A stretch of 64,000 nucleotides of DNA from Chlamydiota bacterium. Lineage in GTDB: Bacteria; Chlamydiota; Chlamydiia; Chlamydiales; Parachlamydiaceae. Made by a program: the position numbers and the translations under genes. How positions within the stretch are numbered: position 1 is the first letter of the stretch; every line of letters starts with the position of its first letter. This document shows, in pieces, positions 10,064-57,199 of this stretch. The notes below the pieces were generated by a model, which was given only the letters and a program-made list of their open reading frames with translations, was not told the origin of the DNA and did not search any database. Where the stretch lies: positions 10,186-74,185 of the forward strand of contig JBEPVL010000004.1 of the NCBI GenBank assembly GCA_041691035.1, in the 5' to 3' direction.

Positions 10064-10111
10064 ATTACGCAAATGTTGCGAAAACCTCATTTTACGCAAT
10101 TTTTACGCAAT
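10064..10111 (+). promoter_or_regulatory. three direct TTACGCAAT boxes (candidate integrase arm-type / regulator sites)
   Basis: ATTACGCAAAT, TTTTACGCAAT and TTTTACGCAAT between att copy 1 and int. Inverted copies TGCGTAAT and GTGCGTAAAA lie at 10381-10399. The same motif recurs at 57144-57199. Confidence 0.5.
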
Positions 10112-10198
10112 CGACCACAAACAACCAGCGCAATTCAAAGCAATACCTCTTTTTACCGACCGAATTTCCTAAAATCTTTTCCTACTTCCCCATTTTTT

Positions 10199-10315
10199 CG
10201 TGGGAACAGTGGGAATTCTGGGAACGCGATTCATTTACCACTCATTTTCATAGACTTACAGTTTATATAACCGTTCCCATACCATCAAATAGACCATGGG
10301 CTCAATGGGAACAGC
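10199..10315 (+). repeat. GGGAAC/GTTCCC iteron-like repeats upstream of integrase
   Basis: GGGAAC agt GGGAAT tct GGGAAC at 10199-10228, plus GTTCCC at 10273 and GGGAAC at 10308. The same hexamer array is found at 15230-15383. Confidence 0.5.
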
Positions 10316-10529
10316 AAAGAACTCTCTTTATCGGCAAAAGCCGACCAAATCATGCAAAAAACAGTCAAATCTTTCTTGAACTGCGTAATAAGTGCGTAAA
10401 AAACGCATATTTTATAGCTCACACACGCTTACAGGCTAATATTTTGATTGATATTCGGCGGAATGACTGTCCGCTGTTCTGGTTTTTTGCCATTTGTGCT
10501 AGTGTACTATACTTTATTTTGGAGGTTAT

Positions 10530-11612
10530 ATGGGAACGATCCGCGAGATAACTAAAAGGGATGGGAGCGTCATGCATCACGCTGAAATTCGATTGCGTGG
10601 CCACCCACCGCAACGTCAATCTTTTCGCACCAAGACTCAAGCGAAAAAATGGATTCAGGATACTGAGGCTGCGATCAGAGATGGTCGCTATAAAGGACTC
10701 TCGGCAGCTCGCAAGCATACGGTCGGTGAATTGATTGATCGCTTTATCGAACAATGCGTGTCGCAGCATCCGATCTATTATCCTAAAAAGGTCCAGCTGC
10801 TTTTGAGATGGAAACAGGAATTGGGATCAATGCTTTTACGCGACCTCTCCCCCTCGTCGATCGCCGAAGTGCGGGACAAATTATTATCCGAAACCACGAC
10901 GAAAAAAACAATTCGCTGTCCAGGAACTGTCAATCGCTACTTGGCACTTTTTTCAAGGGCTTTATCGGTTGCATCTAAAGAATGGGAATGGATGGATGAC
11001 AATCCGATGCAAAAGGTGAGAAAGCTAAAGGAATCAAAGGGACGGGACCGATGCCTCTCGGCCAGCGAAAAGAATGCGCTTCTGAAGGCATGTCGGGAAT
11101 CAAAGAACCCAGTCCTTTATCACATTGTCAATCTCGCGCTACTCACAGGGATGCGTTATGGCGAAATCGTGAAATTGCGATGGGAAGACATTAACTTTGA
11201 TCTCCGCTATGCCACCATGCAGCAAACCAAAAATGGCGATAAGCGCGTGATTCCCATCACAGAGGAGATCATCCAGGTTTTAAAGGAATGCCCAACCTAC
11301 GGAGAGGCCCCCGAGGAATTCATTTTTAAGAGCCGCCGCCTCATGCCTACAAAGCATGGAATTACGATCCGAAAATCTTTCGCAACTGCTTTAAAAGAAG
11401 CGGGAATCAAGAATTTTGTCTTTCATATGCTCCGGCATACTGCTGCGTCAGATCTTGCCAATGAAGGAGCTACAGAAGGCGATCTTCAGGAAATTTTTGG
11501 ATGGAAGACCAAGAAGATGGCCAGTGTGTACTGCCATCGCAGCCTTGAGCGCAAACGAAGCCTCTTGGAGAAGCTTGGAAAAGGATCAAATCATCAAAAC
11601 CAAAAGGATTAA
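10530..11612 (+). CDS. int: tyrosine-type site-specific integrase (phage/island integrase)
   Basis: 360 aa. SAM-like N-terminal domain and catalytic motifs LLTGMRYGEI, HMLRHTAAS, VYCH. A GGAGG RBS is present. Lies directly downstream of the tRNA fragment. Confidence 0.9.
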   Translation: MGTIREITKRDGSVMHHAEIRLRGHPPQRQSFRTKTQAKKWIQDTEAAIRDGRYKGLSAARKHTVGELIDRFIEQCVSQHPIYYPKKVQLLLRWKQELGSMLLRDLSPSSIAEVRDKLLSETTTKKTIRCPGTVNRYLALFSRALSVASKEWEWMDDNPMQKVRKLKESKGRDRCLSASEKNALLKACRESKNPVLYHIVNLALLTGMRYGEIVKLRWEDINFDLRYATMQQTKNGDKRVIPITEEIIQVLKECPTYGEAPEEFIFKSRRLMPTKHGITIRKSFATALKEAGIKNFVFHMLRHTAASDLANEGATEGDLQEIFGWKTKKMASVYCHRSLERKRSLLEKLGKGSNHQNQKD

Positions 11613-11614
11613 AC

Positions 11615-12871
11615 ATGTTTAAAAACTTACCAGATACCCTGCTCATAGAACGCAGCATGATGCATCGCATGGAGACTTCTGGAGCCGTTCTTCAATACTT
11701 GCCTCAATTTTTACAGACTCTTGCCCGAACCAAAGAAAGCGCTCCATCATTTGAAGGTTTTGAAGCCGACTTGAAAAGGCAAGAAAAAATTCAGAGGCAA
11801 GAGATGGCCAAATCAATCGAATGGATCACGGAAAAAATCGACAAACTCAAAACATCTCCTTTTGCAACATACCCAGTGGTTGAACACAGCATTGCAAGAG
11901 CAGAACGATCCCTGACTTCTAAAGATCAGTTATCACCCGCCATCCTTTTGCATAGCATCATAGTGAATTTACAATTTGCTGTTTCCGCAGTTGCAGCTTT
12001 TGGTAATGATCCACTTTTTGAAGGGTGGGTTGAAATTGGGATCGCAAAAATAGACCCAAAAGGAATAGCTCCTAAATTCCCCAAAAATGCGAAAGGTTTG
12101 ATTCCGGTAGAAAATCGATTGGAACTTGCTGAACAGATAGGTCATGGCGTTGATTGCTGGCAAGTCTCACCTCTATCAATAGGCCCGAATGGCAAGCAAT
12201 CAACACCTCCTGCTGTCTATCTTTTGTTTGGCAATTTTGAAAAGTTTATTTTTCCATCCTCTGTTGATTCAGTATTTGCGCTTTCAAAAGATATTCGTGA
12301 ATGGAGAGAGAAAAGGAATACGGATCCGGCAACTCTGTTGAATTTTCTGAAAATTTTATCTCAATATGAGGCTTCTAAAAAACTGTCAGAGCCACCCTTT
12401 TTACGAGCCAACACAGTTTTAGAAGCGGAAAAACTTTGCATTGAAGGAGAGATTCGCCCTTATCTTCGCCAATTTTCTTCGACTAACTCAGAAGATCATC
12501 CACTTTCTCGCAGCCAATTACTCAATCTCATCGACACCTTCTTAAATATGCTGGACATCAATATTACTCAGGCAATTGCCAAGCGAAAAGAAGCAAAGCT
12601 ATCGATTCAGGCCGCTGGTCCGAATTTTGATGTCCGTGTGCGCGATAAAGAAATTGCTGTGAAGTGGATGAAAAAGGAATGGGCACAAGACAACCAACTT
12701 TCTCAAGATACCATTGTTGATAGGCTTGTTCTAGCTATACTGCAAAATAGAATTGAACTTGAAAAAGACTACAAGAGATCTACCTTTGAGAAATGGGTTG
12801 ATGAGGCGGATCCTCTTCCAAAAGCAGAAAGGGAATACCGCCCCAAAACTAAAAATCTGAAAAATGGGTAA
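11615..12871 (+). CDS. hypothetical protein (418 aa) in int-alpA accessory hotspot
   Basis: The start ATG overlaps the int stop. No recognisable motif. Occupies the variable slot between the integrase and the AlpA-like regulator. Confidence 0.5.
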   Translation: MFKNLPDTLLIERSMMHRMETSGAVLQYLPQFLQTLARTKESAPSFEGFEADLKRQEKIQRQEMAKSIEWITEKIDKLKTSPFATYPVVEHSIARAERSLTSKDQLSPAILLHSIIVNLQFAVSAVAAFGNDPLFEGWVEIGIAKIDPKGIAPKFPKNAKGLIPVENRLELAEQIGHGVDCWQVSPLSIGPNGKQSTPPAVYLLFGNFEKFIFPSSVDSVFALSKDIREWREKRNTDPATLLNFLKILSQYEASKKLSEPPFLRANTVLEAEKLCIEGEIRPYLRQFSSTNSEDHPLSRSQLLNLIDTFLNMLDINITQAIAKRKEAKLSIQAAGPNFDVRVRDKEIAVKWMKKEWAQDNQLSQDTIVDRLVLAILQNRIELEKDYKRSTFEKWVDEADPLPKAEREYRPKTKNLKNG

Positions 12872-13024
12872 GTGAGCTTTTTTGAAAGGGGTAGTCAGCT
12901 CCATCATTTTTATAGAGAGAAAGGGGTAGTCACTTACCCTTTCGAATTTTCTTCCCTTAAGAAAAAGAGCGTTAACCCTCACAATTGAGCTTTAACCAGA
13001 AAACAACCAAGTGAGGAGGTTGCA

Positions 13025-13234
13025 ATGACAGTAAAAGAAGCTCAATTAATCACAGTTAGACAATTTTGTGAGAGGTACTCTTATCCATCTGAAAGTGCTT
13101 TGAGAGCAATTATTTTGGATGCCTCGATCAATGGCTTTGATAAGGCCATTTTTCGGGTGGGTCGTCGTGTTTTGGTCAACGTTCCTACGTTTTTTCAAAT
13201 CATTGAAGAGAAGAATGGAGGAAAAAAAATATGA
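13025..13234 (+). CDS. AlpA/excisionase-family HTH DNA-binding protein
   Basis: 69 aa. FRVGRRVLVNVPTFFQII matches the HTH_17/Xis-AlpA family. GGAGG RBS. A paralog at 57810-58058 shares the VGRRVL motif. Confidence 0.65.
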   Translation: MTVKEAQLITVRQFCERYSYPSESALRAIILDASINGFDKAIFRVGRRVLVNVPTFFQIIEEKNGGKKI

Positions 13235-13380
13235 AAGGAAGACTCAAAAAAATACAGAAGCAAAATGATACCCCGTCCTCAATCAATACGAGGACGAGGT
13301 ATGAAAAATAAATGTTGGCAATTTAACCGTAAGTCTACAGAGCGGCAACTCGATAGACTATATCGTAAGGACAAGACAAG

Positions 13381-15213
13381 ATGAATATTAGCATGGCAGA
13401 GGAGATTTCTCAACAAAATTCGGATCTTGAAATCATCCGACATCGGGTCCGAGAAATAGAAAAAAAATGCGATGAACAACGAGAGAGGGAACTCACTCGG
13501 CTTCCTCCTGGATTTTATTTAGATGACACCAGCCTCTGGTATCAGGAACCTAAAGAAGATGAGGATGAAAGCCCTGTCCGCTTACGAATCTGTTCCCGCC
13601 TCGAAATTATAGCAGTCACACGCAATCAGCACGGTGAAGATTTTGGACGATTGCTCCAGTGGCATGATTGCGATGGGCGCATGCACACGTGGGCGATGCC
13701 CATGTCGATGCTTGCTAGCGAAGGATATCCCTACCTGGGAGAACTGCTATCAAAAGGGCTTGAGATAGAACCTGGAAGAATGGCTCGTCAGAAACTCACG
13801 GTATACATTCAATCCTCCCGTCCTACGGCAAGAGGATTATGTACGCCTCATGTTGGCTGGCACCATGACTGCTTTGTCCTGCCTTCGAGGACAATAGGAC
13901 AGACCGCAAATGAACGAGTTATTCTTCAATCCAACTATCCAGCCGGACATTTTTCAACGAAAGGAACTTTGGAAAACTGGCAACAGATCCCTAAGTTATG
14001 TACTGGAAACAGCAGGCTTGTCTTTGCTTTGTCTATGTCTTTTGCCTCCATTTTGTTGACACCGTTAGGAATCGAAAGCGGAGGCGTACACTTTCAAGGC
14101 ACCAGTTCCTTGGGAAAAACGACAATTTTAAGAGTGGCTGCTACCCCTTGGGGTGGAAAAGACTACGTTCTCACATGGCGAGCCACAACTAATGGATTAG
14201 AGGGAATAGCCATGAATCACAACGATACTTTGCTTTGCCTCGATGAATTGGGTCAGAGCGATCCGGATAAGGTTGGAGAAGCCACCTATATGCTGGCTAA
14301 TGGCTCCAAAAAGGTGCGATCTGATGCCTCAGGTGATTCCAAACCCACAGCCAAATGGCGCATACTCTACATCTCCAGCGGAGAGACCAATCTCGCTGGG
14401 CATCTCATGCAAGTTGGCAAAAAAACGCGAGCGGGGCAAGAGGTGCGCATACTGGATATTCCAGCCGATACGGGCAAATATGGAGCATTTGAAAACTTGC
14501 ATCATTATCCGACAGGTGATGCCTTTGCCAATGCCTTGAATGAGTTAACCACAAAATTTTATGGCACTGCAGCCATTCATTTCATCGAACAGTTGATAGC
14601 CAATAAAAGCGAGTACCTGAAATTGACCAAAGAGAAAATGCAGCAGTTTGAACGAGATTGTTTTCCTCCGAAAGCTTCCGGTCAGGTAGCTCGAGTATTG
14701 AACCGTTTCGCCATCATTGCTGCTGCAGGTGAAGTAGCAACGGAGATGGGAATTACCGGCTGGCAAAAAGGAGAAGCCTTTCAAGGAGTGAAATCCTGCT
14801 TTGAGGCTTGGTTGTTCACAAGAGGAAGTATCGGGTTGCTTGAAAGGGAACAAATTAAAACACATATTCGTCGGTTTTTTGAGTTGAATGGAGAGAGTCG
14901 ATTTGCCGACATTGCCGCTTTTAAAACCCATTCGGAGGATTCATCCTCCCATCAGGTGCCTTATCAGAAGATAACCAATAGAGCCGGTTTTCGCGAAAGC
15001 GAAATGGATGAGACTACTTATTATGTTCTTCCTGAAGTATTTAGCATGGAATTCTGCTCAGGTTTTGACAAGCGACTCGTCGAATCCGTTTGCATTGAAG
15101 AGGGTTGGCTGATTCGTGGAAAAGATCGGATGACAATCAAAAAAAGACTCCCTCAAATGGGAGCGAAATGGGTCTACATGTTTACCAATTGTGTGTTGGG
15201 TGATGAAGATTAA
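13381..15213 (+). CDS. DUF927/SF3-helicase-like replication ATPase (primase-associated, P4-alpha/PICI Rep-like)
   Basis: 610 aa. Walker A GTSSLGKTT and Walker B LLCLDELG. The N-terminal region resembles DUF927. Followed by an iteron array and a separate primase gene. Confidence 0.6.
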   Translation: MNISMAEEISQQNSDLEIIRHRVREIEKKCDEQRERELTRLPPGFYLDDTSLWYQEPKEDEDESPVRLRICSRLEIIAVTRNQHGEDFGRLLQWHDCDGRMHTWAMPMSMLASEGYPYLGELLSKGLEIEPGRMARQKLTVYIQSSRPTARGLCTPHVGWHHDCFVLPSRTIGQTANERVILQSNYPAGHFSTKGTLENWQQIPKLCTGNSRLVFALSMSFASILLTPLGIESGGVHFQGTSSLGKTTILRVAATPWGGKDYVLTWRATTNGLEGIAMNHNDTLLCLDELGQSDPDKVGEATYMLANGSKKVRSDASGDSKPTAKWRILYISSGETNLAGHLMQVGKKTRAGQEVRILDIPADTGKYGAFENLHHYPTGDAFANALNELTTKFYGTAAIHFIEQLIANKSEYLKLTKEKMQQFERDCFPPKASGQVARVLNRFAIIAAAGEVATEMGITGWQKGEAFQGVKSCFEAWLFTRGSIGLLEREQIKTHIRRFFELNGESRFADIAAFKTHSEDSSSHQVPYQKITNRAGFRESEMDETTYYVLPEVFSMEFCSGFDKRLVESVCIEEGWLIRGKDRMTIKKRLPQMGAKWVYMFTNCVLGDED

Positions 15214-15229
15214 GATGGTAATTATTGTT

Positions 15230-15383
15230 GGGAACAGCGGGAACGTGGGAACATTATTGAGTTTTATGGGCATTTGTTCCCTGGTTCCCCATGAGCAAAC
15301 TCTAATCTGGGACACAAATTGTAATGCTAACTCATTGATATTAAGAACACTCCTAAACCTGTTCCCAGGTTCCCGAAGTTCCC
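15230..15383 (+). repeat. iteron array: 3x GGGAAC, 2x GTTCCC, 3x GTTCCC (putative island replication origin)
   Basis: GGGAAC at 15230, 15239 and 15247. GTTCCC at 15276 and 15284. GTTCCC at 15361, 15369 and 15378. An AT-rich spacer lies between them. Positioned between the helicase-like and primase genes. Confidence 0.6.
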
Positions 15384-15419
15384 GTGCAAAAATGCCTATA
15401 GAAAAATAATGAAGGAATT

Positions 15420-16475
15420 ATGGATTTAATGGATTTAGCAAAAGAGGCAGGACTTTCACCCATTAAGGTAGCACAAACTAATGGAGGAGAGTACATTTGC
15501 GCCTGTCCCAAGTGCGGCGATGGTGGCAAAGGAAAAAAGTCCGATCGTTTTCATGTATGGCCAAATCAAAAAGCTAAAAATTGTATGGGCCACTACTGGT
15601 GTCGTCAATGTGGAATCAAAGGAGACAGCATTCAATTTTGCCGCGACCTTCTTGGACTAAACTATGCGGAGGCTTGCTCCAGATTGAAGGTACAGATGAC
15701 CCTTTCTCCAAGAGAATGGGTGACCGACCTAGCCAGACCACAAAAGACATTCAAAAAAGCTATCGTCCCAAACGGCATTTGGTTGTCCAAGGCATCGGTG
15801 TTTGTGGAGTGGTGTCATGAATTGATCTGGAAGTATCCAACAGTTATCGCATCCCTCAAGGGACGAGGTTTTGATGAAGAATCTATTCGACATTGGAAAC
15901 TCGGCTATTGCCCTGAAACTTTTTGGCGCGATCGCTCTTCATGGGGCTTGTCTGAAAAACCTAATGCTAGCGGCCTTATCTCGAAATTATGGTTGCCGCA
16001 AGGAATCGTCATTCCTACCATTTCAGAGAGCAATGTGATAAAAATTAAAATTCGCAGACCTGATCCCCTCACACAGCAAGATAAGAAATTCCAAAAATAT
16101 GTCGTGGTCTCCGGCAGCATGGAAGCTCCGGCAGTTTATGGCGACCTATCAAAACCTGTTCTCATTATGGAGTCGGAGTTAGATGCTATGCTGACATTTA
16201 AAGCGATAGACGGAATTTGCTGTGTGGTAGCTCTTGGAGGAGCTCAAAAGAAGCCTGATTTAGAATTGCATCATCAACTCCAACGTTCATCGCGTATTCT
16301 TCTTGCCCTCGACTTTGATGAAGGGGGAATGAAAGGCAACGCATTCTGGCGATCTATCTATCCCCAGTTACTTTTTTGGCCGGTACCAGAAGGTAAAGGA
16401 CCTGGAGATGCAATTAAGCTTGGCCTTGATCTTCGACGTTGGGTTGAAGCAGGCCTCAATACAGTAAAAAACTGA
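15420..16475 (+). CDS. DNA primase (CHC2 zinc finger + Toprim domain)
   Basis: 351 aa. CACPKCGDGGKGKKSDRFHV...CRQCG zinc finger. C-terminal Toprim-like acidic motifs LIMESELDAM and LALDFDEGG. Confidence 0.7.
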   Translation: MDLMDLAKEAGLSPIKVAQTNGGEYICACPKCGDGGKGKKSDRFHVWPNQKAKNCMGHYWCRQCGIKGDSIQFCRDLLGLNYAEACSRLKVQMTLSPREWVTDLARPQKTFKKAIVPNGIWLSKASVFVEWCHELIWKYPTVIASLKGRGFDEESIRHWKLGYCPETFWRDRSSWGLSEKPNASGLISKLWLPQGIVIPTISESNVIKIKIRRPDPLTQQDKKFQKYVVVSGSMEAPAVYGDLSKPVLIMESELDAMLTFKAIDGICCVVALGGAQKKPDLELHHQLQRSSRILLALDFDEGGMKGNAFWRSIYPQLLFWPVPEGKGPGDAIKLGLDLRRWVEAGLNTVKN

Positions 16476-16498
16476 AGTCAACAAACAAAGGAAATATA

Positions 16499-17113
16499 AT
16501 GAACAATACACCAACCATTCCAGAGAAAGCTGATATGTCTCGCCCGGGATTTAAGGGCTATCAAATTGAACAGAACTCTTCCTCAAAGAAATTTGGAAAG
16601 TGTCCGATTCAGTTTGTTCTTGAAGGAGGCCAGGAAAAGCCAAGAGCTTCTATTATTTTGAATCCAAAAGAGCAATGGTGCCAGTCACCTGCGGAAGCGC
16701 TACAATGTGCTCTAACACGAATAACTGGCACTGATGACCAAGATCTAGCAAAAGACATCATCGATAGAGCTATCTTTGCAATGCCAATGGCCAATGGAAA
16801 GGAGCATAATACAAATGTTGTCTACCAGTCTCTATCTGATTGTGAGCCTAAAGATTCCTTGGAAGCCAAACTTTGCGCGCAATGTACGGCTCTATATGCT
16901 CAAGGAATGCAATATCTATCCCGAGTAGAAAAATCTGATATGATGTGCCAGATCGAATTTAATATGAAATGCGCCATAAAGCTGCTTCGCCTTCACAACG
17001 AGACTACAGAAGCATTAGCACGCTATCGTCGCAAAGGCGAGCAAAAGGTCGTTGTACAACATGTAAATGTGAATGATGGAGGTAAAGCTATTGTTGGGAA
17101 TATGATATCCTAA
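16499..17113 (+). CDS. hypothetical protein (204 aa)
   Basis: ORF with AGGAAA RBS-like upstream. No recognised domain. Confidence 0.4.
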   Translation: MNNTPTIPEKADMSRPGFKGYQIEQNSSSKKFGKCPIQFVLEGGQEKPRASIILNPKEQWCQSPAEALQCALTRITGTDDQDLAKDIIDRAIFAMPMANGKEHNTNVVYQSLSDCEPKDSLEAKLCAQCTALYAQGMQYLSRVEKSDMMCQIEFNMKCAIKLLRLHNETTEALARYRRKGEQKVVVQHVNVNDGGKAIVGNMIS

Positions 17114-17128
17114 TGGAGGGGAGGGGGA

Positions 17129-17395
17129 ATGAAAAAAACGAGCGAGGTACCCCATGATTCGAGTATCTGCGGGGCAAAAGCAAGGACAAATGAGCATCAA
17201 TCTTGCAGGCGCATTGCAATGAAAAATGGTCGCTGTCATTTGCATGGAGGCAAAAGTACTGGCTCGAAAACTCCAGAGGGAAGGTTAATTCAGAAAATGG
17301 CTTCTTGGAAACACGGGATGCGGTCAAAGGAAGCAAGGGCCGAAGCAAAAACTATACGGCAAATGATACATGCCTACCGAGAAGAATTAAAATAA
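17129..17395 (+). CDS. small Cys-rich zinc-ribbon protein with CHLHGG motif (phage-like)
   Basis: 88 aa. CGAKARTNEHQSCRRIAMKNGRCHLHGGKSTG. GGAGGGG RBS. Confidence 0.45.
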   Translation: MKKTSEVPHDSSICGAKARTNEHQSCRRIAMKNGRCHLHGGKSTGSKTPEGRLIQKMASWKHGMRSKEARAEAKTIRQMIHAYREELK

Positions 17396-17594
17396 CCTAG
17401 GGAGGATATCTGGGATCCAATTTAAAATTTAATCCGCAATCTCCCAACGGCAGTCATTCACCGGATTAAATTGCTAATAATTATTTTAAGTGACATGGTT
17501 GGGTTGATGAGTGTTCAAGTCAGAATAGATTGTCTATTCGATTCATCACCAAAATTCGTTAATTTTAAGAACAAAACCTAGCAAGGAGAAATTT

Positions 17595-18020
17595 ATGGTA
17601 GCAACAAAAACACAAGCGCTTGAAAAGCAAAAAGCCTTACAAGTGTTAAATCATTTTTTAGATCAATTTAAAAATTGCTGTAAGCAAAAACAGTCACCTA
17701 ATGCAGCTAATTTTGAAAATATTCTTTCTCATGATTTTCAGAATTCAAGCAATGGAAAGCTGATCGGAAAAAACATCCAAGATTTTTTAAAACGCATTCA
17801 AGAAGTGCAAAAAAAATATTCACATGTTGAGTTCTCTCACCTTCAAGATTGTTTGATTTCGGGTAATAAAGCCACTATTCAATATGACATGAACCTAACT
17901 TTACAAAATGGAGAAAAACGTCTGCTAAATATCATGGCGATTGCAACAATTGATGGTGATCTCATAACGCACTGGTCTCAAGTATCCCACGATAAGGAAA
18001 AAGATCATTTAAATTCTTAA
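17595..18020 (+). CDS. SnoaL-like / NTF2-like small protein
   Basis: 141 aa. AGGAGA RBS. The pattern fits ketosteroid isomerase/SnoaL-like proteins. Confidence 0.45.
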   Translation: MVATKTQALEKQKALQVLNHFLDQFKNCCKQKQSPNAANFENILSHDFQNSSNGKLIGKNIQDFLKRIQEVQKKYSHVEFSHLQDCLISGNKATIQYDMNLTLQNGEKRLLNIMAIATIDGDLITHWSQVSHDKEKDHLNS

Positions 18021-18217
18021 TAGTCAGAATATCGTGTATCAAAGTGTGAGAGAATGGTCCCCTTCTAATTGCTGAATGATGAAGGGTTATCCATGAAGCC
18101 GGCTAATCCACGTATTTTCTATCAATGGCGGCTCGTCGAGCATCAAGTTCGCATTGTTCGATGTCGGCGAACCGCTAATTTTGGGAGCGATCGTCCTCCA
18201 TCACAAGTGATTCTGAC

Positions 18218-20614: not shown

Positions 20615-20641
20615 TTAAAAAACTAAAAAAAGGAGAGTGAT

Positions 20642-43832: not shown

Positions 43833-43835
43833 ATA

Positions 43836-48690: not shown

Positions 48691-49812
48691 ATGAAAATTC
48701 TTATTTTAAATCGCGGATCGAGCAGCGTTAAGTGCTGTCTATACGATTTTTCCAAATTACCAGATAGCTCAGAGGATCCCTTATGGGAAAAAAAGATCGA
48801 ATGGAAAAACATTAGCAAAGAAGGAACGTCAAAGATCCGAGAGGATCTCCATTCTTTGTTGTCAGGTAAAGAAATCGATTGTATTGGGCACCGCATTGTC
48901 CATGGCGGTAAAAAATATGAAGAAAGCGTATTCATCGATGCGGATGTCAAAAAAGAGATACGCAACCTTGCAGATCTTGCACCTCTTCATAATTTAGCCG
49001 ATCTTGAAGGAATTGATATCTTAGAAAAATTTTTCCCAGGTAAACCTCAAATAGCTGTTTTTGATACGGCTTTTCACCATACCTTGCCAGAATCTGCCAA
49101 AATCTATCCGGGTCCCTATGAATGGGTTCAAATGGGAATTCAACGTTTTGGTTTTCACGGAACGAGCTTCCAATATTGTTCAAGAAGGGCTGTTGAAATC
49201 TTAGGGAAAGAGCCGCATAGAATGGTCATTTGCCATTTAGGTTCCGGCGCCTCTCTTTGTGCCGTTAAGAACGGAAAAAGCATTGACACGACGATGGGGC
49301 TCACACCCTTAGAGGGGTTAATGATGGACACCCGATCTGGTACTGTCGACCCAGGCATTCTGCTTTATCTTTTGGAGAAAAAAGGAAGAACAGTTAAAAA
49401 GCTTTCCACTGAATTGTATGAGAAATCGGGATTATTGGGGCTTTCTGGAATATCAAGCGATATGCGCGATATCTTGGAAAAAGCATCAGAGGGCAATATT
49501 CGAGCTCAGCTGGCCATTGATGTCTATGTCCATCGATTAATCTTCATGATTGGTTCTATGGTAGCCTCTTTGGATGGCATCGACACTCTCATTTTCACAG
49601 CTGGAATTGGAGAAAATGCTTCTCTCATTAGAGAACAGGTTTGCGATCGTCTTTCATTTCTTGGTATTAATCTTTCTAAACATCAACAAAGCAACTCGGA
49701 AGACTATGTCATTTCTTCGCCTATTTCAAAAGTCAAAGTTCTTGTTATTCATACAAAAGAAGCCTTTGAAATAGCGCGAGAATGTTGGAAAAAAATGAAT
49801 AACAAGAAGTGA
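48691..49812 (+). CDS. ackA: acetate kinase
   Basis: 373 aa. ILILNRGSSSVKCCLY N-terminus and GHRIVHGG. Confidence 0.9.
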   Translation: MKILILNRGSSSVKCCLYDFSKLPDSSEDPLWEKKIEWKNISKEGTSKIREDLHSLLSGKEIDCIGHRIVHGGKKYEESVFIDADVKKEIRNLADLAPLHNLADLEGIDILEKFFPGKPQIAVFDTAFHHTLPESAKIYPGPYEWVQMGIQRFGFHGTSFQYCSRRAVEILGKEPHRMVICHLGSGASLCAVKNGKSIDTTMGLTPLEGLMMDTRSGTVDPGILLYLLEKKGRTVKKLSTELYEKSGLLGLSGISSDMRDILEKASEGNIRAQLAIDVYVHRLIFMIGSMVASLDGIDTLIFTAGIGENASLIREQVCDRLSFLGINLSKHQQSNSEDYVISSPISKVKVLVIHTKEAFEIARECWKKMNNKK

Positions 49813-50019
49813 GGATTTTATAAACAACAGAAATCGATGAATTTTTAGAGGAATTGCATTTGTTATGTCATATTCCACAGAAGATGTATGCGAGTACGAC
49901 GAATGTTATATCAAAATAATATTTATATATACATGTTGAAGAATGTGCCTATCAGGACAATAGTGGTGGTCGCAGCGACTAGTGTTAGAGTCCTAAAAAT
50001 ACATAACAGGAGTTTTTTT

Positions 50020-50295
50020 ATGAACAAGGATACCTTGCACGGCGATTGGAATGTTGTTAAAGGAAAAATTAAAGAGAAATGGGGGAAACTTACAGATGAC
50101 GACCTTACGGAAATCAAAGGAAAGAGGGATCAGCTATTAGGCAAGCTCCAAAAGAAATATGGTTTTGCTAAAGAACGGGCAGAACAAGAACTTTCTGAAT
50201 GGGAAAAGTGCTGTGATCATGAGTGCAAAAGCAAAGATCAAGATGCTCGAGAAAAGGAAACTAGTATTTCTGCCAAGCATACAAGCAAGCCGTAA
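50020..50295 (+). CDS. CsbD-family general stress protein with Cys-rich C-terminal extension
   Basis: KGKIKEKWGKLTDDDL..IKGKRDQLLGKLQKKYG. Internal start at Met45 of the long ORF. Confidence 0.7.
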   Translation: MNKDTLHGDWNVVKGKIKEKWGKLTDDDLTEIKGKRDQLLGKLQKKYGFAKERAEQELSEWEKCCDHECKSKDQDAREKETSISAKHTSKP

Positions 50296-50339
50296 TATTG
50301 TTTATCAAGCTTCAAAAACCAACTTATAGGAGAAAAAAA

Positions 50340-51188
50340 ATGAAAAAAATATTTGCTCTAATAGCTCTAGGATCTGTTTCTATGGTATCTGCAGATCAAT
50401 ACAGTCAACCTTATGGTTATCAATCAAATGGTTGCCCATCTTGCTATAATGGCGGGGAAAATTATCAAGATCAACAGAATAATGCTTATTATCAGAAAGG
50501 GAGGGATAATGAATATCAGGGGCAGCAACAGTCCCAATATCAAAGGAATAATCAACCAAATTATCAACAACAACCCCATCGGAATCAGCCTTATAACCAG
50601 AATCAACAAAATGATCAGAACAATCAGCCCTATTATCAAGATCAACAGAAAGGTTATGATAATAATCGTGGCTATGGCAACTCTTCAGATCAAGAAATTG
50701 ACAAAAAAATCCGTGATACCCTCAGCTCCGGCTGGTTTTCGAAAGGATTTCAAGATGTTGATTTTAAAGTGAATAATGGAAATGTACTCCTCACTGGCTC
50801 TGTCAATACGCTTGAAAACAAGAATAAAGTCGAAGATAGCGTGAAAAAAATTGATGGTGTTAGACAAGTGAACAATCAAATCACAATCGTTAAAGAAAGT
50901 ACAGGTAACTATTCTGATTCCCAATTGCAAAACTCCGAAAAAAAATATCCTCAAGATTTTGCGTCTAACCCACAAGATAGACAATTGAATGCAACAATCC
51001 GTGATAAATTGGGTAGTGGTTGGTTTTCAAAAGGCTACGAGACATTGGTGATTAGAACGACTAATGGTGTCGTTGTTGTCAGTGGAACCGTTGATAAAGC
51101 CGAAGATATTCAAAAAATAAGTGATCAGATTAAAGATGTTGAAGGCGTTAAGTCTGTTAACAATCAGCTCTCTGTGAGAAACAGATAA
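50340..51188 (+). CDS. secreted Q/N/Y-rich protein with two BON domains (OsmY-like)
   Basis: Signal peptide MKKIFALIALGSVSMVSA. About 100-aa Q/N-rich low-complexity region. Two BON-like segments (IRDTLSSGWFSKG... and IRDKLGSGWFSKG...). Confidence 0.7.
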   Translation: MKKIFALIALGSVSMVSADQYSQPYGYQSNGCPSCYNGGENYQDQQNNAYYQKGRDNEYQGQQQSQYQRNNQPNYQQQPHRNQPYNQNQQNDQNNQPYYQDQQKGYDNNRGYGNSSDQEIDKKIRDTLSSGWFSKGFQDVDFKVNNGNVLLTGSVNTLENKNKVEDSVKKIDGVRQVNNQITIVKESTGNYSDSQLQNSEKKYPQDFASNPQDRQLNATIRDKLGSGWFSKGYETLVIRTTNGVVVVSGTVDKAEDIQKISDQIKDVEGVKSVNNQLSVRNR

Positions 51189-51360
51189 CTTGTCCAGGAG
51201 AGGCCACTTTTTGTGGCTTCTCCCTTGTCTTGATCGCCCTTTCCTCTTATTAACCTAGAAACTGCGCGTTAGCATGAAGCATAACGTTTGTAAAACCATT
51301 GCTTTACCTGCTCAACAGAATGGGGATATATTATATACTATTCAAACAAAGAGGCTACCT

Positions 51361-51603
51361 ATGTTAAATCCTAAAAAATTAGGCGTTTCTGGAGGAATAC
51401 TTTGGTCCATATGCATGTTCATCTGCACTATCCTTGCCATATACACAGGATATTCCACACAATTTCTAAATTTAATGAGTAGTATTTATCCAGGTTATTC
51501 AATTTCTTGGCTCGGATCTATCATTGGCCTGGTTTATGGATTTGTAGATGCCTTTGTTGGTCTATTCCTTTTGGCTTGGCTTTATAACAAGCTTGATATC
51601 TAG
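51361..51603 (+). CDS. small integral membrane protein (2 TM)
   Basis: 80 aa from the internal ATG. Hydrophobic helices. Confidence 0.4.
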   Translation: MLNPKKLGVSGGILWSICMFICTILAIYTGYSTQFLNLMSSIYPGYSISWLGSIIGLVYGFVDAFVGLFLLAWLYNKLDI

Positions 51604-51653
51604 ACAGACAATAAGATGCCTGAAAAGCCCATACATTTGAAGGAAGGTCACTT

Positions 51654-53381
51654 ATGAAAACTATCAAAACATCAGTTCTTATTATCGGTACTGGTGGTGC
51701 AGGGCTCCGATGCGCTATTGAACTTTTCCGGCAAAAACAAAAAAATATTCTAATTGTTGGAGACTGCAATTTTTGCGACGCCCACACTAAAGTTGCAGAA
51801 GGTGGTGTGAACGCCTCCTTTGGCAACATGGAAAATGAACCCGATAATCCTCTAGTTCATGCTGTTGATACGTTTCATGAAGGCAAGTATATTTCTAATC
51901 CTTATCTTGTCAAACTTTTAACGAATCATGCACAAGAAGCAATCGATGACTTGATTGACATGGGGGCCAATTTTCATAAAGAGCCAAATGGAAAAATAAG
52001 TCAAAGATATTTTGGTGCACATACTTATAGACGCACCATTTTTAAAGGCGACGAAACAGGCCAAGAAATCATGCGTGTCCTCTGCGAGCAGGTCAAAAAT
52101 TACAAGATTGCTCGTATGGATAATCTGTACATTTTCAAACTTCTCGTTGAAAATAATCATGTTTTGGGTGCAATTGGAATACAAAAAAATAAGTTTGTGA
52201 TCATTGAAGCGCCTATTGTGGTCATTGCTACCGGTGGATATTCAAATATTTACAGAGTTTCTTCTTCCAGGAATTTTGAAAATTTTGGCGATGGAATTGC
52301 TATGGCATTTGAGGCAGGGGCAGTTGTTGGGGATATGGAAATGGTACAATTTCATCCAACTGGTCTTGTTTATCCAGAAGAAGTGGTAGGAGAACTTGTG
52401 ACAGAAGCTGTTCGCGGGGAGGGAGGAGTTCTGAAAAATATAAATGGTGAACGCTTCATGGAGAGATACAGTCCAGTCAAAAAGGAGCTTTCAGCGCGTG
52501 ATGTTGTTGCACGTGCTAATTATATGGAAATTCTTGCAGGACGTGGTACCAAACGAGGCGCTGTATATTTGGATATTACTCATCGAAGTAAAAAATTTTT
52601 ACTTGAGCGTCTTCCCAAAATGTATCATCTGCTCAAAAAACATAACAATATTGATATTTCTAAAACTCCTTTCGAGGTTGCACCCATCGCACACTATACT
52701 ATGGGAGGTATCAGATTCGATCCAAAAACGCTGTGCACAAATATTACAGGTTTATATGCAGTTGGTGAGTCATCTATGGGGGTTCACGGCGGCAATAGAT
52801 TAGGAGGCAATAGCCTCATTGAAATTTTGGTGTTCGGAAAACTAATAGCGAAAAAAATTGCAAAGAAGAAGCTTAAACAACATCCAGTTTCATCTAGGCA
52901 ACTCAGCGATTTCGAAGAATTTGTAGTAAAAAATATTACAGAAAATGGCAAGCTCTCTAGTACAAAAACTCTTATTGATATCAGAAATATTATGTGGGAA
53001 TATGTGGGCATTGTTCGAACACAAGCGCGCCTTTCCAAAGCATTAGAACTTCTATCTAACATCAGAAAAGATATTGAAAAAAATGGTCTTGCTGACAGTG
53101 AAACACTTCAGCAAACAACTACTGACAAAATGCGAGTACATGCAGTTTTAGATTTAGCAGAGCTTGTGACAACTGGTGCATTGTCAAGAAAAGAAAGTCG
53201 AGGTGCGCACTTTCGAGAAGATTATAAAGTTCAGAAAAAGGTTTTCCTTAAAAATATATTTTTTCAGAAAGAAGAAAAAACGATCAAAACCTGGACCGAA
53301 AAAATTCCTACTTTGACAAAGCAATTTGAAAAAGCTTTAAAAAGAATACACCCCACTACCATTTATGGTCATTTAGAGTGA
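51654..53381 (+). CDS. FAD-dependent flavoprotein of the fumarate reductase/succinate dehydrogenase/L-aspartate oxidase family
   Basis: 575 aa. GTGGAGLRCAIE FAD-binding N-terminus, HYTMGGI and ESRGAHFRED motifs. No adjacent Fe-S subunit, so it is possibly an L-aspartate oxidase-like standalone enzyme. Confidence 0.7.
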   Translation: MKTIKTSVLIIGTGGAGLRCAIELFRQKQKNILIVGDCNFCDAHTKVAEGGVNASFGNMENEPDNPLVHAVDTFHEGKYISNPYLVKLLTNHAQEAIDDLIDMGANFHKEPNGKISQRYFGAHTYRRTIFKGDETGQEIMRVLCEQVKNYKIARMDNLYIFKLLVENNHVLGAIGIQKNKFVIIEAPIVVIATGGYSNIYRVSSSRNFENFGDGIAMAFEAGAVVGDMEMVQFHPTGLVYPEEVVGELVTEAVRGEGGVLKNINGERFMERYSPVKKELSARDVVARANYMEILAGRGTKRGAVYLDITHRSKKFLLERLPKMYHLLKKHNNIDISKTPFEVAPIAHYTMGGIRFDPKTLCTNITGLYAVGESSMGVHGGNRLGGNSLIEILVFGKLIAKKIAKKKLKQHPVSSRQLSDFEEFVVKNITENGKLSSTKTLIDIRNIMWEYVGIVRTQARLSKALELLSNIRKDIEKNGLADSETLQQTTTDKMRVHAVLDLAELVTTGALSRKESRGAHFREDYKVQKKVFLKNIFFQKEEKTIKTWTEKIPTLTKQFEKALKRIHPTTIYGHLE

Positions 53382-53519
53382 ATTTTATCATTGCAAACCG
53401 CATGTGAGCAGAAATAAATAAATTCTGTCTTTTATAACGCTGGCAACTTTTTATAGCAATTGCACGATCAGTGCAATTGCTATATGTTTTCCGATAGAGA
53501 ATACATGTTTTTTAAAATA

Positions 53520-53900
53520 TTAATGAGAGCTATGAGCTGGAGAACAAGACTCGGAACAGCGAGTACAAACTTCTGCACATTCTTGACAATGGTCAACTTT
53601 CATTTTTTTACACTCTTCTGCACATCTTTTACATATTTGTGCACAAAGATCCATGATTTGATGCTGGAATTCTGACTGAGTGCTTTTGGCTTTTATAGCT
53701 AGACTGCATACATCCGCGCATTCAGCACACAAAGCCGCTGTTTTCTTCTGACCTTCATCAACGCATTTTTTTGCACAAGCTGCACAAACACTCATGCATT
53801 CCATCATTTGTTGCATTTCTTTAGAATCAGTTTGAGGAAATGAAGCGTGTGAAGAACAGCAGCCTTTATCGTTTCCTTTGTTATTTTCTTTATTTTGCAT
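53520..53900 (-). CDS. four-helix-bundle Cys-rich copper-binding/storage protein (DUF326, Csp-like)
   Basis: 126 aa with about 20 Cys in CxxxC patterns across four predicted helices. Confidence 0.7.
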   Translation of the reverse strand: MQNKENNKGNDKGCCSSHASFPQTDSKEMQQMMECMSVCAACAKKCVDEGQKKTAALCAECADVCSLAIKAKSTQSEFQHQIMDLCAQICKRCAEECKKMKVDHCQECAEVCTRCSESCSPAHSSH

Positions 53901-54290
53901 AAAATTCTCCTTGAGTCATAGTGTTAATTAAAGAAGTAGATGCATTTGGTACGGTCCAAATGTAACCCCTTCTCCAATTCTGATAAATATCACAATGATT
54001 CTAAAAATAGCTATGCATATCCCTCTACCCTTAGGGTTAGCAATTGTTTTCATTATAGGCAAATTTAAGATTTAGAAAAATTAGGTAGGAGGTGGATTAA
54101 ATAAATTATTTATAAATTATGATGCATGGATTTCGTTTTTTCCATATCTCCTGGTCGCATGGCAAAGTCACCAAAATGAGCAGATAAAAGGATGCTAGCC
54201 ACAAGCGCCACAAGTGTTAAGACACTCACTGCCACTAATTGTAGTCTTGTTACAGCCAATTTCATGTTCTTTTGAACTTTCATATTTTTA

Positions 54291-54536
54291 CTACATTTCC
54301 ATTTTATTGTGTTTAGATGTAATTTTTTGCCCGCCTTTTCCTAATACTCGCTCTGTTCCCATACCATGCTTAAGCTTGTTAGCCACTAACCAATAATTAA
54401 TTGGGTAAGCTGTCATGCAACCAATAATATTAGCAAGTGGCATTACACCCCAAAAACTAAGGTTTGTAGCTTCCATTGCAGACATGTCCTGACTCATTAA
54501 AATTACCATGACTGGAATCATTCCTACCATTACCAT
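54291..54536 (-). CDS. small membrane protein downstream of copA (hypothetical)
   Basis: 81-aa ORF abutting the copA stop, followed by another 57-aa hydrophobic ORF at about 54117-54282. Confidence 0.3.
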   Translation of the reverse strand: MVMVGMIPVMVILMSQDMSAMEATNLSFWGVMPLANIIGCMTAYPINYWLVANKLKHGMGTERVLGKGGQKITSKHNKMEM

Positions 54537-56828
54537 TTATAATTTAATCCTACGTAGTCTTAAAGCATTACCAATAACGGAAACAGAACTTAAGCTCATT
54601 GCAAGTGCAGCAATAATGGGATTGAGTAACAATCCTGTAAAAGGATAGAGCAAGCCTGCAGCAATAGGAATACCCAGTGCGTTATAAATAAATGCAAAGA
54701 ATAAGTTTTGACGAATATTACGCATCATCGCATGGCTTAAATGGATAGCTTTTACAATTCCCATTAAATCGCCTTTAACTAACGTCACATCTGCGCTTTC
54801 CATTGCTACATCCGTTCCAGTTCCCATGGCAATTCCTACATCAGCAGCAGCCAAGGCTGGAGCATCATTGATTCCATCGCCTGCCATTGCTACATAACTA
54901 CCTTTACCCTTTGCTTGCTTAACAAAATCTTGCTTATATTGAGGCTCAACTCCTGCATGGACTTCATCGATGCCTAGCTTCTTACCGACAGCTTGTGCTG
55001 TTTGTTCATTATCCCCTGATAGCATAACGATTTTTTGCCCTAGTTCATGGAGTTCTCGGACAGCATTGGGGGTAGAATTTTTAATAGGATCACTAACTGT
55101 AATCAATCCTGCTGCTTTTCCATCAATGGACACAAACATGACTGTTTGCGCTTGCTCTTGCAGAATCTGCGCCTGTTCTTGAAGAGACATTAAGCCTTGA
55201 ATTTTTCTATTTTGCAAAAGATTGAGTTTGCCAATTACAATTTCATGATTTTCTACATTACCACTTATCCCTCCACCTGTAATGGAGATAAAATTATCAA
55301 CTTTTGGGATGATTAGGGACCTATCTTTTGCTCCTTGAACAATGGATGTAGCTAAGGGGTGTTCGCTATTTTGCTCCACTGCCGCTGCTAAACGAATAAG
55401 ATCATTTTCAGACCATTCTCCAGTTGTTATAATCTTTGTCAATTTAGGCTTTCCCTCTGTCAGAGTACCTGTTTTATCTACAATAATTGTTTTGACTTTT
55501 TCTAATTTCTCTAATGCCTCAGCATTTTTAATTAAAACACCAGCTTCTGCTCCTTTTCCCATACCCACCATAATCGACATAGGCGTAGCAAGGCCAAGTG
55601 CACATGGACAAGCAATAATTAAGACAGCTATTGCATTGACAAGGCCATAAGCAAAAGAAGGTTCTGGTCCAATGAGTGCCCAAATAATAAAAGTTAAAAT
55701 AGCCACTAGAATAACTGCAGGTACAAAATAAGCCGAAACTTGATCCGCTAAGCTTTGAATAGGTGCTCGACTTCTTTGTGCTTCAGCAACCATCTGAACA
55801 ATTCGAGAAAGAAGTGTTTCACTCCCTACTTTTTCTGCACGCATCAAAAAACTTCCCGTCTGGTTGATTGTTCCGCCTGTGATCAAATCATCTACTGTTT
55901 TTTCAACAGGCATAGGTTCGCCTGTAATCATCGATTCATCAACTAAGCTTTTGCCTTCAGTAATTTTACCATCGACAGGTACCTTATCTCCTGGACGGAC
56001 CCGCAAAAGATCTCCTACTTGAACTTGGTCAATCGAAACTTCAACTTCTTCTCCATTACGGACAACCCGAGCCGATTTAGCAGCTCTGCCTAGAAGTGCT
56101 TTAATGGCTTGACTTGTTTGGCTTCTGGCCTTTAGCTCTAAAACTTGACCCAGTAGGACTAAAACAGTAATGATGGATGCCGTTTCAAAATAAATAGGAA
56201 TTTCTCCGTGATGACGAAAGGAAGGTGGAAAAATATGAGGGAAAAATAATGCCACGACGCTAAAAACATAAGAAGTGCCAACGCCCATGGCGATTAAACT
56301 AAACATATTAAGATGACGATTAACAACAGAATGATAGGCTCTTTCAAAGAAAGGCCAACCCGCCCATAGAACAACAGGAGTACTTAAAACAAATTGAATT
56401 AGACGGGATAATTGAGGGGAAATAAATCGGTCAAAAGAAGGAACCATGCTACTCATCGCAAGGATCAGTATAGGAATACTTAAAACAAGACCTATCCAAA
56501 ATCGTCTCGACATGTCGCGATATTCAGAGTTATCAGATTCAGCTCCCACTGATTTGAGTTCTAATGTCATTCCACAAATAGGACAATTTCCTGGATGATC
56601 TTGCACAATCTGCGGATGCATGGGACAGGTATATTCCGTCGTAGAATCCATAGCTTGATTTTGTTGTTGAGATTGCAGATGCATATATTTTTCAGGATCC
56701 TTTTTAAAGCTATCTAGGCAACGTTTGCTGCAAAAAACATACTGTTTGTCTTGATGGCTACTTTTATATACACTCTGATCTGGATCAACCATCATGCCGC
56801 ATACAGGATCTAATTGCTCTTTTGCCAT
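54537..56828 (-). CDS. copA: copper-translocating P1B-type ATPase with N-terminal YHS/TRASH and CxxC metal-binding domains
   Basis: 763 aa. CGMMVD YHS motif, CPICGM, and CPC, DKTGTLT and GDGINDAP motifs. Confidence 0.9.
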
Positions 56829-56830
56829 GC

Positions 56831-56989
56831 TTATTTCCTTGAGATGTATTGATTTGGATTTTGCCTAAATTTGTTCAAGCATTGCTGGCTACAAAATACA
56901 TATTGATTCTCTTGGTATTCGGTTTTATACTGAGCTTTGCTTGAATCAACATTCATTCCGCAGATAGGATCTTTAGATTGGGTAGCCAT
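56831..56989 (-). CDS. small YHS-domain protein (52 aa), unlisted ORF upstream of copA
   Basis: Minus-strand translation [52 protein letters not shown]. Parallels the copA N-terminal YHS domain. Its stop is 2 bp before the copA start. Confidence 0.6.
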
Positions 56990-57143
56990 AATAAACCTTC
57001 TAAATTTAATGGGTTACGTTAACAAGCACTATCCATTATGGAGTATAGACATCCTCTTTTCTAAATTAGTCTAATGTTACATATGCCAGAAATAATAGAT
57101 GCACACAATAAAATCTAGTTTAGCTTAAATCCTCAGTGCAATG

Positions 57144-57199
57144 AATTACGCTAATTTTACGCACTCGGTGGGAAAAGAGTGGCATAAATTAGCGTAAAT
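57144..57199 (+). promoter_or_regulatory. TTACGC(T/A)AAT boxes (two direct, one inverted) upstream of att copy 2
   Basis: AATTACGCTAAT, TTTTACGCAC and the inverted AAATTAGCGTAAAT. Same motif family as 10064-10111 and 10381-10399. Confidence 0.45.

Follow-up and report, generated by a model that had tools for sequence, protein, structure and literature searches.

The 64,000-nucleotide (nt) stretch of DNA analysed here (hereafter the window; contig JBEPVL010000004.1 of assembly GCA_041691035.1, positions 10,186 to 74,185 of the forward strand) comes from a bacterium of the Parachlamydiaceae. Environmental chlamydiae are obligate intracellular bacteria, and their gene flow is poorly mapped. The window is a tandem array of three islands integrated successively into the 3' half of a tRNA-Met(CAT) gene, and its second island, 9979-57332 (47.3 kb), is structurally one island bounded by attachment (att) sites at present, but a composite one. 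The reading that we regard as rather probable is that a small, Chlamydiae-specific integrative element, provided with arm-type integrase sites and led by the tyrosine integrase Int2, here holds about 38 kb of mosaic cargo between its conserved backbone and its P arm. The features that define the two ends of island 2 are as follows (coordinates refer to the window).

9979-10034, plus strand: att copy 1, attR of island 1 and attL of island 2, a tRNA-Met(CAT) 3' fragment followed by CTTTTTC
10035-10420, plus strand: P' arm and int2 upstream region, with direct TTACGC boxes at 10065, 10092 and 10103 (+), inverted boxes at 10383 and 10394 (-) and a GGGAAC cluster at 10202-10312
10530-11612, plus strand: int2, a tyrosine integrase of 360 amino acids (aa), Pfam Phage_integrase and Int_N
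57146-57283, plus strand: P arm, with direct boxes at 57146 and 57157 (+), an inverted box at 57192 (-) and a core-proximal box at 57256 (+)
57272-57332, plus strand: att copy 2, attR of island 2 and attL of island 3, a tRNA-Met 3' fragment with two C-to-T changes

The att copies, which had been proposed in a sequence-only reading of the same DNA, are real: they form a 61-nt direct repeat (9974-10034 and 57272-57332, 90% identical, with a 30-nt exact core inside). The repeat represents the 3' portion of tRNA-Met(CAT): it begins in the anticodon stem, runs to the acceptor end and extends about 7 nt further. No intact tRNA exists at either copy: ARAGORN detected none, and Rfam aligned copy 1 (31 bits) only with the D-arm deleted. 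From position 9979 onward, copy 1 is identical to the intact tRNA-Met of the related locus L008 (contig JBAWVE010000001.1; L numbers are our handles for related loci and contigs), the 5' half of the tRNA being replaced in the window, and the point from which tRNA identity begins (GACTCATAA) suggests that strand exchange takes place in or near the anticodon loop. At the two positions changed in copy 2, the consensus bases are present in all 21 of the 21 metagenomic fragments described below. The arrangement is that of a tRNA island, with 3'-tRNA direct repeats at both ends and int2 starting about 500 bp after copy 1; an intact tRNA-Met(CAT) gene likewise lies about 500 bp upstream of int in seven of seven genome loci carrying an Int2 relative. 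A fuzzy search between the two copies for the T-arm, the anticodon-loop block, the acceptor end, two P-arm blocks and the P' start revealed no third att or arm remnant, so that the interval is one att-bounded island in its present structure.

The TTACGC boxes were found just inside both att copies at the positions given in the sequence-only reading, which had overlooked the additional P-side box at 57256. The bare hexamer is mildly enriched in the window (26 matches versus 16.4 expected), and the phased pair TTACGC-N5-TTACGC, with a period of 11 bp, occurs four times versus 0.00 expected (100 shuffles). Three of these four pairs flank the att copies (at 10092, at 10383 on the minus strand and at 57146). 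The fourth, TTACGCCCTTCTTACGC at 39653-39669, falls in coding sequence at the tpiA stop and the P-type ATPase start, far from any att, and has a GC-rich spacer unlike that of the arm sites. When eight tRNA-to-int regions were aligned, the box pairs, i.e., direct TTTACGCA-N4-TTACGCA and inverted TGCGTAA-N4-TGCGTAA, proved invariant, while the surrounding DNA diverged; judged from this alignment, the invariance across the eight loci is a phylogenetic footprint of function. The sequence-only reading had allowed that the motif might turn out to be common at unrelated loci, but the phased pair is absent from 14 related chlamydial loci without an Int2-type integrase (about 258 kb in total).

Int2 relatives were sought in a scan comprising one genome per species, which returned seven loci with 55-98% integrase identity in metagenome-assembled genomes (MAGs) labelled as Parachlamydiaceae, Waddliaceae, Chlamydiales or Chlamydiae, the 98% value coming from a MAG of the Parachlamydiaceae. 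At E <= 1e-20 more than 450 homologues of the integrase were retrieved, and among the best 120 of these all but one of those with a named source are from Chlamydiae. The right ends of the family were searched for in a metagenome collection with a pattern consisting of the box pair, 105-135 nt, CTCATAA and the T-loop, an order unique to right ends. Twenty-one loci were found, all of them lacking an intact tRNA. Boxes and tRNA motifs are prescribed by the pattern, but about 120 nt between them are left unconstrained; since this unconstrained stretch is homologous to 57164-57283 across the metagenomic right ends (with the shared blocks GGGAAAAGAGTGG, GAGCACAATTGGCAC and CTGTGCCTATGTA), 57146-57283 is a genuine P arm of the Int2 family. 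The P-arm consensus can be written as TTACGC-N5-TTACGCA ... AGCACAATTGG ... GTGCCTATGTA, followed by the tRNA-Met 3' fragment, and a BLAST comparison with the P arm of the window gave seven of these contigs (L022, L023, L030, L032, L034, L036 and L037) at 84-91% identity. The homology of the 21 right ends starts exactly at box 1, and the sequences upstream of it are unrelated. Scans of a viral contig collection yielded neither an Int2 relative nor the right-end pattern.

The two arms were also found joined. A contig of 9,858 nt (L020) has an exact 127-nt terminal overlap, which corresponds to a 9,731-bp circle or tandem, and a contig from another sample (L033) is a permuted, 100% identical copy of it. 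Taken together, the two contigs have the P arm, the tRNA-like core, the P' arm and int (55% identical to Int2) in one contiguous stretch, with box pairs on both sides of the core; they also encode a homologue of p418, a candidate for the excisionase, a primase and a DUF927 helicase. The same uninterrupted order of arms and core is seen in L029. This suggests that a 9.7-kb relative exists as a circle or a tandem multimer, a statement that holds for the relative with 55% integrase identity and not for the island of the window. The arm-site proposal is borne out by these comparisons: the boxes stay invariant at integrase identity down to 55%, recur at the 21 right ends and occupy both sides of the core in the circular relative. 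The reading of the TTACGC(A/T) boxes as arm-type sites belonging to a single integrase family, the P' arm adjoining attL and the P arm adjoining attR, is well supported, and the two ends of 9979-57332 are a genuine attL and attR of this family.

The integrase itself belongs to the lambda-like type according to its predicted structure. Its catalytic domain was recognized by Pfam (PF00589, E = 4e-35), and the residues R209, K234, H299, R302, H303 and Y334 are invariant in 48 homologues, the window protein included. The AlphaFold2 model (predicted local distance difference test score, pLDDT, 87) comprises three domains, the core-binding and catalytic domains being preceded by an N-terminal unit (residues 2-51) with the succession beta(2-8), beta(14-20), beta(28-32), alpha(35-51). 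The isolated N-terminus was modelled with the same fold, its structure matches being AP2/ERF DNA-binding domains, and no match to it was obtained in Pfam and PHROG searches. Among PDB folds, Int2 comes closest to the integrases of Tn1549, integrons and lambda, and the model can be aligned with full-length chains of lambda Int over 354-357 columns. Int2 is thus predicted to be a lambda-like three-domain tyrosine integrase with an extra N-terminal beta-beta-beta-alpha domain. Lambda Int is a heterobivalent tyrosine integrase, whose arm-type sites are designated P1, P2 and P'1-P'3. Apart from the predicted domain structure, the Int2 system shares with it short repeated non-core sites on both arms of attP and the position of the int gene by the P' arm, and a small gene downstream of int2 is a candidate for an excisionase gene. 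It differs in sequence (about 20% identity), in a core consisting of the tRNA-Met 3' half and in the absence of phage structural genes, and the TTACGCA box, its 11-bp tandem phasing and the extra inverted pair about 400 nt from the core are peculiar to the Int2 family.

Downstream of int2 the island continues with a conserved backbone, delimited by homology to L008, L014 and L040 and annotated with Pfam and PHROG.

11615-17398, plus strand: backbone after int2, composed of the following
11615-12871, plus strand: p418
13025-13234, plus strand: candidate excisionase, 69 aa
13381-15213, plus strand: DUF927 helicase part
15229-15380: GGGAAC/GTTCCC iteron-like array (three direct, two inverted, three inverted) between helicase and primase
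15420-16475, plus strand: CHC2/toprim primase
16499-17113, plus strand: p204
17129-17395, plus strand: 88-aa HGGxSTG protein, which closes the conserved backbone

The nucleotide identity of this backbone is 91% to L008, 69% to L014 and 71% to L040, and the homology ends at 17351-17398. The 69-aa open reading frame (ORF) recurs at the equivalent position in L040 (93% identical) and L041 and shows 29% identity to a small island 3 ORF; Pfam and PHROG returned nothing for it, nor for p418, p204 or the small island 3 ORFs. The 88-aa protein is 80% identical in L040 and gives a weak PHROG match to a small terminase subunit (E = 1e-4). Relatives of the DUF927 protein (38-40% identity) are encoded on small plasmids, for instance one of 7.0 kb in Salmonella and one of 14.6 kb in Legionella fallonii. 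Judging by this gene content, the family can be described as a small, plasmid-like integrative element specific to Chlamydiae and equipped with its own replication genes: it possesses a primase and DUF927 helicase module, and a circular form is seen in the relative L020.

The designation of the int/primase module as satellite-like, made in the sequence-only reading, was not sustained, as no helper-phage feature was recognized and the backbone is more like that of an integrative plasmid. Genes for hijacking a helper are lacking beyond the weak terminase match mentioned, no structural or packaging genes are present in 9979-57332, and relatives are absent from the viral contigs. With P4-like elements and tRNA islands in general the family shares the integrase by a tRNA 3' repeat, the primase and DUF927 helicase-type module, a backbone of about 10 kb and the circular relative; it differs in having no capsid-redirecting or packaging genes, in its chlamydial host and in the 47-kb size of the window copy. 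The GGGAAC/GTTCCC motifs form two clusters about 5 kb apart (10202-10312 and 15229-15380), the first of them inside the P' region between the direct and the inverted TTACGC boxes, and their positions are kept in L008, L011, L014, L040 and L041. These clusters look like replication-origin iterons and may be comparable to ori and crr of P4.

The position of island 2 within a tandem array, overlooked in the sequence-only reading together with the location of the intact tRNA outside the window, follows from its neighbours.

1-9978, plus strand: island 1, which opens with int1 (94-801, cut by the window start) and continues with accessory cargo up to 9782 (Pfam)
57333-62857, plus strand: island 3, integrase-less (Pfam, PHROG)

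The order inferred is tRNA, island 1, att copy 1, island 2, att copy 2, island 3 and a possible copy 3. In this layout the intact tRNA-Met must sit just to the left of the window. The cargo of island 1 includes, according to Pfam, Cass2, GNATs, GrpB, CN-hydrolase, AAA_28, EVE, MarR, AbiEi/AbiEii and DUF3800, and int1 has about 38% identity to the int2-type integrases. Island 3 carries a candidate excisionase (57810-58058), p135, a DUF3987 helicase, p178, two NUDIX proteins, a His-phosphatase and a GNAT. Inspection of the sequence revealed no TTACGC boxes at the right end of island 1 and at the left end of island 3, so that the boxes are specific to island 2 rather than a general feature of att flanks. 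The sequence GATTCAAATCCAGCTTGC at 62836-62857 agrees at 16 of 18 positions with the tRNA-Met fragment in its T-loop and acceptor part and may be a decayed third att copy closing the integrase-less island 3 (57333-62835). Many of the metagenomic right ends directly precede another integrase, either int1-like or int2-like, and tandem arrays are therefore usual at the tRNA-Met site.

The remaining part of island 2 is the cargo, in which the gene list of the sequence-only reading (glgC, cyoABCDE, the quinol nitric oxide (NO) reductase qNOR, gnd, zwf, pgi, P-type ATPase, tpiA, fba, xfp, glgP, pgm and ackA, with CopA and Csp as the copper module) was confirmed by Pfam. It is arranged as follows (GC3, GC content at third codon positions).

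17399-19291: proximal variable cargo, with p141 (17595-18020, GC 0.32) and an orphan AbiEi antitoxin gene (18369-19073, minus strand; Pfam AbiEi_4)
19292-33279: block B1, with glgC, a CBM20 protein, cyoEDCBA (minus strand), qNOR (minus strand), DUF488, HhH-GPD, gnd and zwf, GC3 0.25-0.43
33918-48609, minus strand: block C, with pgi, Band7, P-type ATPase, tpiA, fba (class I), xfp (41478-43832), glgP, pgm and HAD, GC3 0.39-0.55 from pgi to pgm
48691-56828: block B2, with ackA (48691-49812), CsbD, BON, p109, an FAD flavoprotein, Csp/DUF326 (minus strand), a DUF4396 remnant (54294-54494) and CopA (54537-56828, minus strand)

The cargo is chlamydial in type: the best named match of glgC is that of Protochlamydia (58%), and CopA, which carries YHS and HMBD domains, is 72-77% identical to its counterparts in named Parachlamydiaceae and Criblamydia. 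The same genes occur in related contigs in various settings. L007 carries cyoABCD, glgC, ..., fba and pgm, with mobile-element genes absent in 16.7 kb; L015 carries a transposase, glgC, CBM20, ackA, xfp, ATPase, Band7, gnd and zwf, its xfp, ATPase and Band7 products being 85-90% identical to those of the window; in L001 and L016 an unrelated integrase, a terminase and a methylase are followed by glgC, with CopA, Csp and a copper oxidase nearby; and L042 has a 90% identical CopA gene near rpsB, tsf and frr. Neither phased boxes nor a tRNA-Met fragment were found in these five (L007, L015, L001, L016 and L042). In addition, the segment 53452-56779 is 91-96% identical at the nucleotide level to L044, where the DUF4396 gene between CopA and Csp is intact. 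The CopA contexts L042-L044 reach no P arm, the homology of L042 being confined to the gene body and the contig of L044 beginning inside CopA.

Several observations concern the cargo alone. In block C a 74-nt direct repeat (35584-35657 and 35866-35939, 96% identical) carries the Band7 gene's 3' terminus a second time, upstream of pgi; it lies exactly at the point where the order departs from that of L015 (Band7, gnd, zwf) and probably marks a former rearrangement. The association of xfp and ackA with glgP, pgm, fba, tpiA, the P-type ATPase and Band7 recurs in related chlamydial contigs (L015, 11836-15410), and no mention of a phosphoketolase in Chlamydiae was found in the literature searched. 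In Rubidus-like Parachlamydiaceae contigs (L001-L006 and L016-L018, at about 8800-10000) glgC lies directly downstream of an unrelated integrase of 322-325 aa. Terminase, N6/N4 methylase and DUF1064 genes come before this integrase, the surroundings being rich in genes for resistance to copper and heavy metals, and the whole appears to be another mobile element adjoining glgC. The 325-aa integrase by glgC in L001 and L016 was considered as part of the same element and rejected, being 22% identical to Int2 and accompanied by neither boxes nor a tRNA fragment. The high GC of the pgi-to-pgm segment was likewise rejected as a proof of foreign origin, since the homologues in L007 and L015 are also GC-richer than their neighbours. 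By content only, the lxa locus of Burkholderia cenocepacia, in which acetate kinase, a cation-transporting ATPase and stress proteins form one co-regulated cluster, is loosely comparable to the grouping of ackA, P-type ATPase, CsbD and BON in the window (PMC3721108); phosphoketolase, Band 7, CsbD and BON are unmentioned in that paper, and the likeness is a lead on cargo function only.

The central proposal of the sequence-only reading, a single mobilised 47-kb metabolic island, was upheld as to its frame and not as to its history: the ends are a genuine family attL and attR with no internal remnant between them, whereas arrival or movement as a unit is unsupported, only 9979-17398 being shared with relatives. 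Apart from the ends, the gene types at the inner edges of the cargo count for one island. In the window, AbiEi stands innermost at one end of the island's cargo and YHS-HMBD CopA at the other, and in L040 (integrase 84% identical) the same backbone is followed by AbiEii/AbiEi, CsoR and YHS-HMBD CopA, the window AbiEi being 61% identical in amino acid sequence to the AbiEi of that element. The AbiEii partner, present in L040, has no match in the island of the window. A cryptic right end near 17-19.3 kb was tried as well, in view of the stop of homology there and of the AbiE pairs that adjoin the P arm in L021 and L027, and was rejected, as no remnants were found and 19060-19300 is without boxes.

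Several observations speak against taking the 47.3 kb as one element of the int2 family, or complicate this reading. The part shared with the closest relatives is limited to 9979-17398 (7.4 kb), and the cargo of those relatives is unrelated (HAD, TenA and MFS in one case, an AAA ATPase in another). Family members are usually about 10-13 kb long, many of the best 120 Int2 homologues lying on contigs of 9-13 kb, which makes the island some 4-5 times the usual size, and no second instance of the 47-kb unit was found among the related contigs examined. The metabolic genes belong, judging from their arrangement in these contigs, to a flexible and often rearranged part of the genome and are not tied to int2, since the same genes are reordered in each related contig without boxes or a tRNA-Met fragment. 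The CopA of the window is nearer to copies in non-int2 or unknown contexts (93-97% amino acid identity; L042 and L044 at 90-96% nucleotide identity) than to that of L040 (75% amino acid identity). Both inner edges bear marks of decay, namely the orphan AbiEi and the DUF4396 remnant, and in L023 an orphan P arm stands by an att fragment without an integrase; as orphan P arms exist, a P arm alone is no proof of belonging to an int2 gene 47 kb away. Finally, GC3 is 0.35-0.50 in the backbone, 0.39-0.55 from pgi to pgm, 0.25-0.43 in the other cargo and 0.22-0.36 in islands 1 and 3, so that the 47 kb are a mosaic and not compositionally one piece; the comparison of the block with its flanks, suggested in the sequence-only reading, thus yielded a non-uniform block and a backbone that differs from most of the cargo. 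Tetranucleotide usage was dropped as evidence, because correlations of 0.64-0.96 among all segments and other chlamydial loci did not separate cargo from backbone.

The backbone shares 91% of its nucleotides with elements from higher-GC MAGs (flanks 0.46-0.48), and in L014 the GC of the backbone (0.38) tracks that of the host (0.39); the GC match of the window backbone to the elements of higher-GC MAGs makes it look like a recent arrival. The cargo, in turn, would not be a block long carried by the int2 backbone. It may have entered by insertion into an int2-type element or by fusion of an older island of the same family with a newcomer.

The second of these routes, taken as a complete account of the locus, we consider rather unlikely. 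The P arm, att copy 2 and the cargo would then be an older, integrase-less island of the same family and the int2 backbone, with its AbiEi, a later arrival, the junction (P arm of the incoming element, att fragment and left end of the older island) having been deleted or the old backbone replaced; int2 would never have carried the metabolic genes, but might mobilise them now. This would explain why the backbone, close to elements of higher-GC MAGs, keeps its high GC3 while most of the cargo has a low GC3 like islands 1 and 3, and would agree with the decay at both inner edges (AbiEi without AbiEii and the DUF4396 remnant). Degenerate arrays and short intervals without an intact integrase are, moreover, common (L021, L023, L024 and L032), the orphan P arm of L023 among them, and the two substitutions of att copy 2 in comparison with every other fragment suggest that it is old. 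On the other hand, such a fusion requires that one more deletion took out exactly the att site and arms in between without leaving a trace, the order AbiEi-CopA is found in the element L040 too, and the reading as a single island takes fewer events.

With respect to function, the composite island bounded by one attL and attR of the Int2 family would operate in the following way. The N-terminal domain of Int2 would bind the boxes (TTACGCAAT), as we infer from the model, the conservation of the boxes and the layout of attP, and the core-binding and catalytic domains would act at the anticodon-loop region of the tRNA-like core; arm-core bridging by Int2 would assemble the integration or excision complex, and the int-proximal inverted pair may additionally autoregulate int. 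That the island is still working, i.e., that Int2 and the 69-aa factor excise the whole interval and a circle bearing the primase-helicase module moves between environmental chlamydiae, is in our estimation doubtful. Another view of the boxes is that they are functional but bound as operators by a different protein of the element, such as the 69-aa candidate excisionase or p418, or that they are promoter elements. The inverted pair, about 130 bp upstream of the int start, does occupy a plausible operator position, and the N-terminal domain of Int2, whose binding to the boxes is predicted, has no Pfam match. We find this view improbable, as the boxes lie on both sides of the attP core and at right ends far from any element promoter, remain constant while the integrases diverge to 55% and the surrounding DNA changes, and form a phased pair that is absent from related DNA without the element, and as Int2 possesses an additional N-terminal domain of the kind with which heterobivalent integrases bind arm sites. 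Most improbable of all is that the metabolic block consists of ordinary core genes of the chromosome trapped between att sites, e.g., by elements at two tRNA-Met paralogues and a rearrangement, for, although its central metabolism is of chlamydial type (glgC and CopA as above), some of the genes stand together without mobile-element genes in L007, CopA neighbours rpsB, tsf and frr in L042 and tetranucleotide usage fails to set the cargo apart from other chlamydial DNA, neither att copy is an intact tRNA and the two have a 30-nt core in common, copy 2 is bordered on its left by the family P arm in place of a tRNA 5' half, the interval contains no second P' arm, integrase or tRNA, and elsewhere these genes adjoin integrases, a transposase, a terminase and metal-resistance modules in an order that differs from contig to contig.

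Large islands in environmental chlamydiae are already known, and no description of the island 2 family was found in our literature search. Pam100G of Protochlamydia amoebophila UWE25 is reported to be an island of about 100 kb flanked by short direct repeats and bearing an F-like conjugative transfer system (PMC548262); island 2 is alike in being a large, direct-repeat-flanked island in an environmental chlamydia, and different in having no transfer genes, another backbone and defined arm-type sites.

Together with its relatives, the locus defines a widespread family of small plasmid-like elements that integrate at tRNA-Met and stack in tandem arrays. The attP of this family can now be read as a core formed by the tRNA 3' half with TTACGCA arm sites on either side, and the rules for boxes and att sites help to locate island boundaries in fragmented chlamydial MAGs. 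Int2, the boxes and the core are, besides, parts that can be tested as a site-specific integration tool in a group for which genetic tools are few. The 47-kb copy demonstrates that an int2-type backbone can end up enclosing a large set of genes for energy and carbon metabolism. If the island is still mobile, it would offer a route for the exchange of respiratory and fermentative capacity between lineages, and, if it is a working unit, it would allow the transfer in one step of glycogen-to-acetyl-phosphate, pentose-phosphate and glycolytic genes along with those for a bo3 quinol oxidase, for a quinol NO reductase and for the export of copper.

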